A DNA stretch of 4,705 nucleotides from a virus (taxonomy: Duplodnaviria > Heunggongvirae > Uroviricota > Caudoviricetes), in IMG/VR virus record IMGVR_UViG_2698536677_000018, positions 1-4,705 of that record; one strand, written 5' to 3'. This document shows positions 365-4,705 of the stretch, in pieces. The notes beneath the pieces were generated by a model. The model saw only the letters and a list, made by a program, of their open reading frames with translations. It had not been told where the DNA came from and made no database searches. The position numbers and the translations under genes were made by a program. Positions within the stretch are counted from its first letter, which is position 1, and each line of letters begins with the position of its first letter.

Positions 365-2656
365 ATGTCGATTAAACATTATGATGTTGTCAGGGCGGCG
401 TCGCCGTCAGACCTTGCGGAAAAGCTGACACACAAACTGAAAGAGGGCTGGCAGCCATACGGCGGACCGGTTGCCATTACGCCGTACACACTGATGCAGG
501 CGGTGGCTATTGAAGGAGAGCCACAGGTCGGCCCTTCATCTGAGCCGGATTGGTACTACGTCATCGTACTGGCCGGGCAGTCCAATGCCATGGCTTACGG
601 TGAAGGGCTTCCGCTGCCGGATTCATACGATGCTCCGGATCCGCGCATTAAACAGCTGGCGCGCCGCAGTACAGTTACGCCGGGTGGGGCTGCCTGCAGA
701 TATAACGATATTATTCCGGCTGACCACTGTCTGCATGATGTGCAGGATATGAGTACGCTGAATCATCCGAGGGCTGACCTGAGCAAAGGGCAGTACGGCT
801 GTGTCGGCCAGGGTTTACATATTGCCAAAAAACTGCTCCCGTATATCCCGAATAACGCGGGGATCCTGCTGGTACCATGCTGTCGTGGTGGTTCGGCATT
901 TACCCAGGGCGCGGAGGGGACATTCAGCGAGTCCACGGGGGCCACAGCAGAAGGTGATGTGGTGGTCAGTGGTGCAACTGAGCCGGAGTGGTACTACGTC
1001 ATCGTACTGGCCGGGCAGTCCAATGCCATGGCTTACGGTGAAGGGCTTCCGCTGCCGGATTCATACGATGCTCCGGATCCGCGCATTAAACAGCTGGCGC
1101 GCCGCAGTACAGTGACGCCGGGCGGGGCTGCCTGCAGATATAACGATATTATTCCGGCCGACCACTGCCTGCATGATGTGCAGGATATGAGTACGCTGAA
1201 TCATCCGAAGGCAGACCTGAGCAAAGGGCAGTACGGCTGTGTCGGCCAGGGCTTACATATTGCCAAAAAACTGCTCCCGTATATCCCGAATAACGCGGGG
1301 ATCCTGCTGGTACCATGCTGTCGTGGTGGTTCGGCATTCACCCAGGGCGCGGAGGGGACATTCAGTGCGGACACGGGGGCCAGCCAGGATTCGGCACGCT
1401 GGGGTGTGGGTAAACCGTTATATCAGGACCTGATTGCGCGCACTAAAGCTGCATTACAGAAGAACCCGAAAAATGTGTTGCTGGCGGTGTGCTGGATGCA
1501 GGGAGAGTTTGACATGAGCGCCGCCACCCACGCACAGCAACCTGCGCTGTTTACAGCCATGCTGACACAGTTTCGTGCTGACCTCTCCGTGTTTAACGCG
1601 CAGTGCCATGGTGGCAGTGCTGCAGATGTGCCGTGGATTTGTGGTGACACGACGTATTACTGGAAAAATACATACGCTACCCAGTACGACACCGTGTACG
1701 GCGGGTATAAAAACAGGGAGAGTGAGGGCGTTTATTTTGTGCCCTTCATGACAGACGGTAACGGCGTCAATACCGCCACTAACGCGCCGGCAGAAGATCC
1801 GGATATTCCGGCATCAGGATATTACGGTGCGGCATCGAGAACGAATGGAAACCAGGTATCATCAAACCGCCCGACACATTTCAGTTCATGGGCGCGCAGG
1901 AGCATTATTCCGGATCGTCTGGCAACCGCTATTCTGAACGCAGCCGGGCGCACCTCAGCCTTCATCAGTGGTAAGGCACCGGAAATCAAACCCTCGCCCG
2001 GCGGCAACACGCCATCGGGTCCGTCTGCAGATACGTCCGTTCGCACAATCTCCCTGCTGCCGGCAGCCGGAGAGGCTGCTGCGCAGGGCTGGAGCATTAA
2101 GGATGGCGGAATTCAGTTGTCAGATGGTGTATTTAAGATCACCAAGCAGAGCAATAAAACCTGGTCCCTGACGCATCCGGTGGATGACGCAATTACCCTG
2201 CTGACACAGGGCGGCAGACTGACCTGTAAGTTCCGCCTGTCAGGCGCACTGACCAACAATCAGTTCGGGCTGGGGATTTATCTGTATACGGATGCTCCCG
2301 TTCCTGATGGTGTGGCGATGACGGGTACCGGTAATCCGTTCCTGATGTCGTACTTCACTCAGACCACTGACGGCAGAGTGAATCTGATGCATCACAGGAA
2401 AGCCGGAAACACGAAGCTGGGGGAGTTCGGCGATTACGGTAACGACTGGCAGACGCTGGAGCTGGTGTTCACCGCCGGCAGTGCCACGGTTACTCCGAAA
2501 CTGAATGGAGTGGCTGGCCCGGCATTCCAGGTTATAAAAGACAGTCTGACACTGGGGCTGAATGCGCTGACGCTGACGGATGTTACAAAAAATGCAGCGT
2601 ATGGCGTTGAGATAGAAAGTCTGGTGCTGGAGATAAATGCACCGGCATCATCATAA
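365..2656 (+). CDS. nanS-p: Prophage NanS-p-type sialate (9-O-acetyl-Neu5Ac) O-acetylesterase, SGNH/SASA-family, with N-terminal DUF1737-like region and an internal duplicated segment
   Basis: 763-aa uninterrupted ORF with good SD. N-terminus [21 protein letters not shown]... and the [11 protein letters not shown] motif are recalled as characteristic of the esterase ORF found upstream of the lysis genes in Stx-type prophages. The GQSN block occurs twice (around aa 71 and aa 217). Confidence 0.8.
537..944 (+). repeat. Direct repeat copy 1 inside the esterase CDS (encodes about aa 58-194, including the GQSN motif)
   Basis: Aligns base-for-base with 975-1382 at a 438-bp in-frame offset. The 391-bp core 537-927 vs 975-1365 shows 9 mismatches (~98% identity). 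Confidence 0.9.
975..1382 (+). repeat. Direct repeat copy 2 inside the esterase CDS (encodes about aa 204-340, including the second GQSN motif)
   Basis: Same alignment as copy 1. The copies are separated by a ~30-bp unique linker encoding ...[17 protein letters not shown]... Confidence 0.9.
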
Positions 2657-2741
2657 AAAGTGAGCCAGTCAAATGGAAGGTATCGTTAAACTCACCGGTA
2701 GTGTCAGTGGGTCGTCTGAGACGCCTGCATGAGTTATCAGA

Positions 2742-2771
2742 GCCATCAGTAGTTAACTGGTGGCTTTTTTA
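2742..2771 (+). terminator. Rho-independent terminator between the esterase gene and the holin gene
   Basis: Stem GCCATCAG (2742-2749) pairs with CTGGTGGC (2757-2764) with one G-U pair, loop TAGTTAA, then TTTTTT at 2765-2770. Confidence 0.6.
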
Positions 2772-2805
2772 TTGTTGTCAGCTTCCGGATAACGGGAGAC
2801 GGGGT

Positions 2806-3021
2806 ATGTACCAGATGGAAAAAATCACAACGGGTGTGTCATACACCACGTCAGCGGTGGGGACGGGATACTGGTTACTGCAGCTGCTGGACAAAGTCTC
2901 TCCGTCCCAGTGGGTGGCGATAGGTGTGCTGGGGAGTCTGCTGTTTGGCCTGCTGACGTATCTGACTAACCTGTATTTCAAAATCAGAGAGGACCGGCGT
3001 AAGGCGGCGCGGGGAGAGTAA
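2806..3021 (+). CDS. S: Class II holin (S21-type pinholin), 71 aa, with dual-start motif M1-Y-Q-M4
   Basis: Translation [71 protein letters not shown] closely matches phage 21 S as recalled (...[14 protein letters not shown]...[22 protein letters not shown]). GGAGA SD upstream. The six-frame ORF starting at 2701 would run through the terminator hairpin, so the ATG at 2806 is preferred. Confidence 0.85.
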
Positions 3022-3025
3022 AGTG

Positions 3026-3370
3026 ATGAATAAAAAATACGAACTGGTTGTTAAAGGGATAAATAATTACCCGGATAAGATTACTGTTACTGTGGCACTG
3101 GAAATTGGTGGGTATCCGTCACTGTTGTTGCCATATGTGGCGATTAGTCTTGACCGTACTGAAGGTGCCACGCTGGAGTTTTACGAAGCTGAGGCGAAAA
3201 AGCAGGCGAAGCAGTTTTTCATGGATGTTGCTGCCGGGTTATGTGAAGGGGATGGTCCGTTGCCGGAAAAGCGGCCCATCATTTTAGAGGCGCAGGATGT
3301 GTTGATAACCTACAGAGGAAAACTACCGGGAATAATTACTGGTTCTCTGAAGACTCCACCGCTGGCCTGA
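3026..3370 (+). CDS. Conserved hypothetical lysis-cassette protein, 114 aa, soluble; possibly DUF1327/YdfR-like
   Basis: ORF with strong SD (GGGGAGAG 3011-3018) that starts 5 nt after the holin stop. Its position between holin and endolysin matches the slot of ydfR in the E. coli Qin prophage as recalled. No transmembrane segment or recognisable catalytic motif. The family assignment is from memory, not a search. Confidence 0.55.
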   Translation: MNKKYELVVKGINNYPDKITVTVALEIGGYPSLLLPYVAISLDRTEGATLEFYEAEAKKQAKQFFMDVAAGLCEGDGPLPEKRPIILEAQDVLITYRGKLPGIITGSLKTPPLA

Positions 3371-3420
3371 AGACTTAACATATCCAGGGATTTGAAATCG
3401 ATAAACCCTGATAAATATCC

Positions 3421-3957
3421 ATGAACGCAAAAATCAGATACGGCCTGTCGGCTGCCGTTCTGGCGCTGATTGGTGCAGGGGCGTCTGCGCCTGAAATCCT
3501 CGACCAGTTTCTTGACGAAAAAGAAGGTAACCACACCACGGCATACCGTGATGGTGCGGGGATCTGGACCATCTGCCGCGGTACCACCCGAGTGGATGGT
3601 AAACCTGTCGTCCCGGGCATGAAGTTGTCGAAGGAAAAATGCGACCAGGTTAACGCCATTGAACGTGATAAGGCGCTGGAGTGGGGGGAGCGCAATATTA
3701 AAGTACCGCTGACCGAACCCCAGAAGGCGGGTATCGCGTCATTTTGTCCTTATAACATTGGCCCCGGTAAGTGTTTCCCGTCTACGTTTTACAGACGGAT
3801 TAATGCAGGTGATCTAAAAGGTGCCTGCGAAGCGTTCGCTGGTGGATTAAGGACGGTGGCAGAGACTGCCGTATCCGCTCAAATAATTGCTACGGTCAGG
3901 TATCCCGGCGAGACCAGGAAAGTGCACTGGCGTGCTGGGGAATTGACAGGCAAGTAG
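3421..3957 (+). CDS. R: SAR endolysin (T4-lysozyme-family, phage 21 R-like), C-terminal ~40 codons apparently frameshifted
   Basis: N-terminal Gly/Ala-rich signal-anchor-release segment YGLSAAVLALIGAGASAP. Catalytic triad spacing E-x8-D-x5-T in KEGNHTTAYRDGAGIWT matches phage 21 R (LEGVSYIPYKDIVGVWT). After ...GDLKGACEA the called frame gives FAGGLRTVAE..., unlike the family, while the overlapping frame encodes RWWIKDGGR...SRRDQESALACWG, which resembles phage 21 R (RRWTYAGGK...TRREIEREVCLWG). Confidence 0.75.
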   Translation: MNAKIRYGLSAAVLALIGAGASAPEILDQFLDEKEGNHTTAYRDGAGIWTICRGTTRVDGKPVVPGMKLSKEKCDQVNAIERDKALEWGERNIKVPLTEPQKAGIASFCPYNIGPGKCFPSTFYRRINAGDLKGACEAFAGGLRTVAETAVSAQIIATVRYPGETRKVHWRAGELTGK

Positions 3958-4041
3958 AATATTTTGCTGAAAATGACGTTGGTCAACGCGGGTGGGTAAC
4001 ACGAAATCCTGCGAACTGGCAAAAGCTAAGTGAATAAAAGT

Positions 4042-4080
4042 AAAACCTCGTTTGTTGGCCGCAAACGGGGTTTTGTGTTT
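4042..4080. terminator. Strong bidirectional rho-independent terminator hairpin (13-bp stem, 7-nt loop, T-rich tracts on both sides)
   Basis: AAAACCTCGTTTG (4042-4054) pairs with CAAACGGGGTTTT (4062-4074) with one G-U pair, followed by TTTTGTGTTT. The A-run on the 5' side gives a U-tract on the reverse strand. Confidence 0.65.
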
Positions 4081-4143
4081 CTGACCTTGAGTAAGGCAAA
4101 GGAGAACATAGGAAAGTATAAACGAATTCTGTTGAGATTGACT

Positions 4144-4290
4144 ATGAAAGACGGCCTTGAACTGAAAGCGCCTGTAACTGATGACGTCAGCAGAGCGCTG
4201 GCTTTTGCTATTAAGTGGGTGGCGGTCGGTATTGCTGTGTCTCCGATGCTGTATGGGCTGGCAAAACTGGTCATTGCGTTGAAATCGTGA
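4144..4290 (+). CDS. Hypothetical small membrane protein (48 aa, one predicted TM segment)
   Basis: First ATG in the 4030-4290 open frame lying downstream of the terminator hairpin. C-terminal hydrophobic stretch WVAVGIAVSPMLYGLAKLVIAL. No convincing SD within 5-10 nt of the ATG, so support is weak. Confidence 0.25.
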   Translation: MKDGLELKAPVTDDVSRALAFAIKWVAVGIAVSPMLYGLAKLVIALKS

Positions 4291-4302
4291 AGAGGATTAA
4301 GC

Positions 4303-4413
4303 ATGTCAGACAAGCTCATAACGCTGGCGAAGATCCTCTGTGTAATCGTCGGCATTTCATTTTCACTAATATGCTGGTTGCTATTTGCTTTTCCACTGCC
4401 TGGCGCGTCTTAA
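4303..4413 (+). CDS. Hypothetical small hydrophobic peptide (36 aa, single TM-like segment)
   Basis: ATG at 4303 preceded by GAGGA (4292-4296) at 6-nt spacing. Translation MSDKLITLAKILCVIVGISFSLICWLLFAFPLPGAS. Too short to appear in the supplied ORF track. Confidence 0.35.
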   Translation: MSDKLITLAKILCVIVGISFSLICWLLFAFPLPGAS

Positions 4414-4443
4414 CTTTGTCAGGGCTGGTGGGGTGAGGGGGAT

Positions 4444-4705
4444 ATGAACCGTGTTCTGTGTGTGGTGATTATTGTCCTGCTGGTAGCCTGTGGTGCGCTT
4501 GGTCTGGGGCTGAATCATTACCGCGATAACGCCATTACCTACAAAGCGCAACGCGATAAAAAAGCCAGTGAGCTAAAGCTGGCGAACGTGACAATTACTG
4601 ATATGCAGGTACGCCAGCGTGATGTCGCTGCACTTGATGCCAGATACTCGAGGGAATTAGCCGATGCGAGAGCTGAAAATGAAACTCTGCGTGCTGATGT
4701 TGCCG
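4444..4705 (+). CDS. Rz: Rz inner-membrane spanin (i-spanin), lambda-type, 5' partial (runs off the window end)
   Basis: Translation [87 protein letters not shown] is near-identical to lambda Rz as recalled (...[64 protein letters not shown]). N-terminal TM segment then coiled-coil region. GAGGGG SD upstream. Confidence 0.9.
4665..4705 (+). CDS. Rz1: Rz1 outer-membrane lipoprotein spanin (o-spanin), embedded in the +1 frame of Rz, 5' partial
   Basis: ATG at 4665 in a different frame from Rz encodes [13 protein letters not shown]..., matching the lambda Rz1 start MLKLKMMLCVMMLP as recalled. Only 13 codons lie in the window; the true start could instead be the Met at 4680. Confidence 0.6.

Follow-up and report, generated by a model that had tools for sequence, protein, structure and literature searches.

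The window analyzed here, the whole stretch of 4,705 nt, comes from a lambdoid, Stx-phage-like prophage and carries its late/lysis region; its features are collected in Table 1. A class II holin gene lies upstream of the endolysin gene R, an Rz gene is present, and two small open reading frames (ORFs) separate R from Rz. The same order of class II holin, ydfR, R and Rz is found in R21-type cassettes. No damage is apparent in the holin, in YdfR or in the part of Rz that the window covers, so that the cassette is not uniformly degraded. In complete E. coli genomes, intact prophages carry Q, tRNAs, TerB, DUF3927, the esterase, the holin and YdfR, then a 177-aa lysozyme, followed by two small ORFs, Rz, PerC and the terminase.

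Table 1. Features of the window, with positions counted from its first nucleotide
Feature	Position	Strand	Evidence
SASA/NanS-p-like esterase	365-2656
Class II (S21-type) holin of 71 aa, seemingly intact, the pinholin that belongs to the cassette's endolysin	2806..3021	+	PF04971; 68/71 residues identical to WP_000284510.1
YdfR/DUF1327 gene between holin and R, as in relatives	3026..3370	+
R as called: phage-21-type SAR endolysin (GH24, Phage_lysozyme), frameshifted, 178 aa	3421..3957	+	ORF list, PF00959, NCBI entry
Native part of R, codons 1-138: SAR domain, E35/D44/T50, lysozyme core to GACEA	3421..3834	+	Alignment with 3hde_A and RrrD 4zpu_A
Linked missense V89G (GTG>GGG, T>G at 3686), deletion haplotype only	3685..3687	+	Alignment
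Deletion site, one A absent (GAAGCG^TTCGC)	3834..3835	+	Single gap column against 6 relatives
Out-of-frame tail, 40 codons (FAGGLRTV...GELTGK), and TAG 3955-3957	3835..3957	+	Translation
C-terminal codons of the ancestral gene (family residues 140-177), shifted to the -1 frame: RWWIKDGGRDCRIRSNNCYGQVSRRDQESALACWGIDR	3837..3950	+	3hde_A, Pfam
Lost stop: CAA where the intact family has TAA; older lesion, common to the 99.7% relatives	3951..3953	+	Alignment with six relatives
28-codon read-through extension (QVEYFAENDVGQRGWVTRNPANWQKLSE) of the frame-restored gene, to TAA 4035-4037	3951..4037	+
Terminator-like hairpin with A-tract/T-tract flanks	4041..4075	.	Fold -18.3 kcal/mol, z = -3.3; minus-strand terminator match
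Rz (spanin, Phage_lysis), 5' part, runs past the window end	4444..4705	+	PF03245; 85/87 residues identical to intact relative

The called ORF of R (3421-3957, plus strand) encodes 178 residues ending in ...GACEAFAGGLRTVAETAVSAQIIATVRYPGETRKVHWRAGELTGK before its stop codon. Residues 1-138 are native and residues 139-178 are out-of-frame: the native part closes with ...DLKGACEA, after which FAGGLRTVAETAVSAQIIATVRYPGETRKVHWRAGELTGK is read in the called frame. The conserved C-terminus of the family (RWWIKDGG...SRRDQESALACWGIDR) is retained in the -1 frame from 3837, and this frame, following a TGA at 3810-3812, reads SKRCLRSV-RWWIKDGGRDCRIRSNNCYGQVSRRDQESALACWGIDR... and stays open to a TAA at 4035-4037. 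The codons for the residues GAC occupy 3820-3828, with merely 8 nt (3829-3836) before CGC-TGG-TGG. An earlier note on this DNA had set out these frames, stops, coordinates and the 8-nt count, all of which match the sequence, and had proposed that one base is missing within 3829-3836. We aligned window positions 3421-4045 with R of H-19B, Stx2_EH2201, UTAK-6 (chromosomal), ML35, B19374 and the 2013C-3264 plasmid. The coding part of this alignment with phage-21-type relatives contains exactly one gap column, an A missing between 3834 and 3835, in agreement with the proposed location; the window reads GAAGCG-TTCGC where six of six relatives read GAAGCGATTCGC. The same one-base gap is the sole indel with respect to ML35, and its position is unique because the lost A lies outside any homopolymer. 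The deletion-bearing sequence within 3800-3870 is GCGTTCGC.

By descent, the 178-aa product is a member of the SAR endolysin family of phage 21 R, Stx-phage R and RrrD/RrrQ. It shares with R21 (phage 21, PDB 3HDE/3HDF), H-19B R, RrrD and RrrQ the GH24 domain, the Gly/Ala-rich SAR helix and E35/D44/T50 at identical positions; its DNA is ~90% identical to that of H-19B R and 97% identical to that of intact copies in chromosomes (177 aa). The catalytic triad shows the spacing Glu-8 aa-Asp-5 aa-Thr, and its three residues match those of 3hde_A. A Gly/Ala-rich segment at approximately residues 8-23 (GLSAAVLALIGAGASA) aligns with the SAR segment of R21 and is the putative SAR helix. What sets R apart from the R21 family is that out-of-frame sequence takes the place of the final 39 residues of the fold and that the family stop is also lost. 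PF00959 matches residues 33-140 of R over profile positions 2-105 of 125, with 71.7 bits against a cutoff of 22.3 (E = 9e-20). When the missing base is restored, the match widens to positions 2-125 of 125 with 85.6 bits, an intact 177-aa relative scoring 90.4 bits. The frame-restored protein also aligns with the phage 21 lysozyme 3hde_A from residue 5 to residue 163 of 165, taking in GAC-xxx-RxW, RR-E and the terminal xWG, and the restored C-terminal stretch (3837-3950) covers profile positions 106-125. Because a single restored base recovers the full Pfam and PDB alignments, the gap is more than a chance feature of the comparison. In the expressed frame, the full C-terminal part of the fold (RxW, RR-E and xWG helices) is absent after residue 138, and 20 of the 125 profile positions are missing. 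Translation and alignments thus bear out the earlier description of a gene that keeps its SAR domain and E35/D44/T50 while its conserved C-terminus is swapped for an out-of-frame tail. Since the complete GH24 fold is lacking, we file R as a pseudogene of the family and not as a working member. A single-sequence AlphaFold2 model of the 178-aa product has a mean pLDDT of 41.3, too poor to interpret.

A further lesion lies at the end of the gene. Intact relatives end in ...TGC TGG GGA ATT GAC AGA TAA (CWGIDR and stop), whereas the window and its 99.7% identical relatives read ...GAC AGG CAA GTA G.. at the same place (3945-3953 being GAC AGG CAA). Columns 529-536 of the alignment accordingly read GACAGATAAGC in UTAK-6, Stx2_EH2201 and H-19B, and GACAGGCAAGT in the window, ML35, B19374 and 2013C-3264. 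Because the stop is CAA, restoring the frame would yield a 205-aa read-through form and not the 177-aa family protein. This 205-aa parent protein is present on 57 contigs. The allele that encodes it, carried by ML35, B19374 and the 2013C-3264 and 2014C-3061 plasmids, is 99.7% identical to the window over 620 nt. It shares with the window the TAA>CAA change, a frameshift in a downstream small ORF, and the remnant of PerC, nleH' and espS; its reading frame is undisturbed, and the 1-nt deletion, V89G, 4048 C>T and 4100 G>A are found in the window but not in this allele. PGAP annotates the lysozymes of ML35, B19374 and the 2013C-3264 plasmid as pseudogenes. A C>T change at 3955, part of the same substitution cluster as the stop loss, makes the TAG at 3955-3957 that terminates the shifted frame, and owing to this fortuitous stop the frameshifted ORF is deceptively normal at 178 aa. 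The older TAA>CAA loss and the coincidental length had been overlooked by the earlier note, as had the setting of the gene in a remnant bounded by insertion sequences (IS).

Within 3945-3957, three substitutions fall in six bases (AGATAAGC to AGGCAAGT), both removing the R stop and creating the TAG of the shifted frame. The 3' untranslated stretch at 3958-4030 likewise belongs to a divergent allele and includes a 1-nt indel relative to UTAK-6. The distribution of changes across 3945-4030 may point to a patch acquired by recombination, more than to point mutations that arose independently.

A sequencing or assembly error, the true genome having the A and a continuous (205-aa) R, is an explanation that has to be considered for any such lesion in a short draft contig, and the window is one (E. 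coli assembly GCA_001285605.1, CYFX01000100.1, 4705 bp). The deletion is also absent from all 5,426 complete E. coli genomes, in which the top match, at 99.7% identity, has one additional base, and an exact-pattern scan for the deletion junction gave no match in a collection that holds one genome per species and is therefore little informative. Against an error, the exact 178-aa product is encoded by 11-12 contigs, which come from different WGS projects and at least 10 assemblies, and by an IMG/VR contig; the carriers include projects with the prefixes JNQZ, NJVM, NJVR, NKPE, CYAI, CYFX, CYEY, CYFP and CAJQVU and an ENA metagenome assembly, and GCA_000704425.1 and GCA_002461025.1 are among the carrier assemblies. 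The protein has been deposited at NCBI under several accessions, as “prophage lysozyme (endolysin)” and as “phage lysozyme family protein [E. coli 2-427-07_S4_C1]”. Where an extra base restoring one continuous frame would have spoken for an error, the same deletion is instead present in at least 10 separate assemblies. All eight contigs that were compared base by base carry the deletion together with three linked substitutions, 3686 T>G (V89G), 4048 C>T and 4100 G>A, the derived state of each being scored relative to ML35. Those eight contigs vary elsewhere, with synonymous changes in R and a differing hexamer copy number in ydfR; that the differences inside R are synonymous only is forced by the exact-protein look-up and carries no evidential weight. 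Because the contigs share linked bases yet differ elsewhere, the deletion behaves as an inherited haplotype. The missing A, moreover, is not within a homopolymer, and the same accession series contains normal calls of the parent allele without the deletion: both the 205-aa and the 178-aa alleles occur in one submitter's series (CTT...), which argues against a pipeline artefact. Given the many assemblies and the linked haplotype, we discarded sequencing error, whose probability we regard as very small. Judged from the assembled sequences, the lesion is a real inherited allele and not a one-off error.

The parent allele resides in an IS-bounded remnant of ~5 kb that comprises the holin, ydfR, R, small ORFs, Rz, PerC, an nleH pseudogene and espS, and that is located on 94-101-kb plasmids or, in the chromosome of ML35, beside a traJ fragment. 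The parent-allele remnant loci of the 2013C-3264 plasmid, ML35 and B19374 lack terminase and structural genes. Deletion-bearing contigs have the same downstream genes as the parent allele, and two near-identical contigs, L008 and L009, are IS-bounded and without terminase. Contig L009 is 99.9% identical to window positions 2437-4705 and continues at 99.4% identity through the ML35-type remnant of PerC, nleH', espS and IS3. The window itself stops inside Rz and has the esterase gene, not an IS element, upstream; because its own sequence ends in Rz, we infer its remnant status from the near-identity to L009. Further lesions in the same lineage include a 2-nt insertion in the ORF at 4303-4413, an ATG>ATA change at 4108-4110 and the nleH pseudogene. 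The IS-bounded fragment that carries either allele also encodes a PerC-family regulator and the type III secretion system (T3SS) effector gene espS.

Could the open -1 frame be more than a leftover? The conserved C-terminus lies in a frame that is still open across 3813-4037, and either a -1 ribosomal slip or transcriptional slippage might restore it, so that some active endolysin would be made. A short A-run (CTA AAA G, 3814-3820) is positioned between the TGA at 3810-3812 and the deletion, where a rare, unprogrammed slip is conceivable. However, 3813-3840 contains no X XXY YYZ heptamer and no A or T run of six or more, the only run being one of four A, and all aligned relatives have one continuous frame. 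Because every relative encodes R in a single frame, there is no ancestral recoding device. The shifted product would, in addition, still contain six wrong residues and the 28-aa read-through extension, and the open -1 frame is what a recently shifted gene leaves behind. Programmed frameshifting was rejected on the lack of a slippery heptamer or long homopolymer and on the single frame of the relatives, and we consider recoding of either kind to be extremely improbable.

It is also conceivable, but highly unlikely, that the 138 N-terminal residues and the new tail form a working protein under selection, such as an attenuated lysozyme, a membrane-tethered peptidoglycan binder, or a product that is dominant-negative toward the endolysins of co-resident phages. 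The intact SAR domain and catalytic triad would suit such a role, and the allele has been long-lived enough to sit on slightly different flanking haplotypes. The tail itself argues otherwise. A search of its 40 residues against 5.8 billion proteins revealed no homologous family, only two short fragments of 59 and 60 aa which are themselves out-of-frame calls on other R genes; intact homologues that share the FAGGLRTV...GELTGK ending, the finding that the earlier note had named as contrary to a deletion, are absent from the same 5.8 billion proteins. The loss of 20 of 125 profile positions, the decay of adjoining genes in the same lineage, and the rarity of the allele (11-12 contigs, against 57 for the parent and hundreds for the intact forms) likewise weigh against a new function. 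The narrower proposal that the SAR-anchored 138-residue core with its new tail has been kept for a benefit to the host, within a remnant that carries an effector gene, is very unlikely. If it were true, the product could lessen lysis by co-resident lambdoid prophages, as a decoy in the periplasm or as a dominant-negative, or it could serve as a tethered peptidoglycan-binding module.

The reading that we prefer, and hold to be very probable, is that R became, in two steps, a pseudogene of a SAR endolysin of phage 21 type, within an E. coli lambdoid prophage remnant that is itself decaying. The order of alleles runs from 177 aa through 205 aa (stop loss) to 178 aa (1-nt deletion with V89G). The first step was the change of TAA to CAA in an ancestor common to ML35 and the 2013C-3264 plasmid, giving rise to the 205-aa read-through allele. 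In the second, a sub-lineage lost one A between 3834 and 3835, linked to V89G and two nearby substitutions, so that translation exits the lysozyme fold past residue 138 and adds 40 unrelated residues before reaching the fortuitous TAG. In SAR endolysins, the SAR helix tethers the exported enzyme, inactive, to the energised inner membrane, and depolarisation by the pinholin frees the helix, which joins in refolding to the active enzyme (PMC6116005). Any 178-aa product would still be predicted to be exported and SAR-tethered. It is most likely misfolded and non-lytic, since ~39 final residues of the GH24 domain (RxW / RR-E / CWG helices) are missing. Because the remnant has no terminase or structural genes and no longer makes phage, its lysis function may be free of phage selection, and the loss of an endolysin able to lyse the host on membrane depolarisation could be neutral or mildly beneficial.

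Frameshifts, deletions and IS insertions are common in the lambdoid prophages of E. coli (PMC2669165), and the defective lambdoid prophages of EHEC and EPEC, such as the Sakai Sp pool, resemble the present remnant in carrying these lesions together with T3SS effector genes (PMC2669165). All 11 lambdoid prophages of Sakai are reported to keep the full lysis gene set (PMC2669165); unlike in these, the endolysin itself is damaged here. The finding is ordinary stepwise decay of a prophage gene and not a new type of enzyme. It provides a clean, small example of ordered decay, stop loss followed by frameshift, in an IS-bounded remnant that carries an effector gene. To automatic pipelines R seems intact, because its length is near normal (178 against 177 aa), it is Pfam-positive and it has been deposited as an endolysin; the 178-aa R should carry a pseudogene label. 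The deletion haplotype may also serve as a lineage marker for carrier strains.

Several other features of the window vary between relatives or lie near R. The earlier note had placed a terminator directly after the TAA at 4035-4037, taken as the end of the corrected gene: the hairpin is real (4041-4075), but the TAA of the restored frame is not the endpoint of the family. In the deletion haplotype, 4048 C>T turns a C-G pair of this hairpin into U.G. Promoter and terminator scans of the window gave counts at the level of shuffled sequence except for this hairpin, and an Rfam scan found nothing near R, its only match being STnc100. This sRNA (RF02076) is matched at full length at 55-227 on the plus strand, upstream of the esterase, with 100.8 bits against a gathering score of 47. 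Downstream of R, the small hydrophobic ORF at 4303-4413 contains an AT insertion (~4369-4370) relative to UTAK-6 which reduces it from 43 to 36 aa; the insertion is common to the ML35 lineage, where PGAP labels the ORF as frameshifted. The 60-aa ORF at 4108-4290 begins, in the window and in ML35, with ATA where relatives have ATG; some assemblies call it from an internal ATG at 4145, with a length of 48 aa. Upstream, ydfR has two copies of a TTACTG hexamer at ~3080-3091 in the window and six in L008 and L011, two contigs that share the R deletion with the window; the difference of 24 nt is in frame and corresponds to a YdfR of 114 aa versus 122 aa. As assembled, the esterase gene contains an apparent in-frame tandem duplication of 438 nt at 540-1382 (1.9 copies, 96% match), which doubles ~146 residues in the N-terminal half of the esterase domain and lengthens the protein to 763 aa, as compared with 616-617 aa in relatives from complete genomes.
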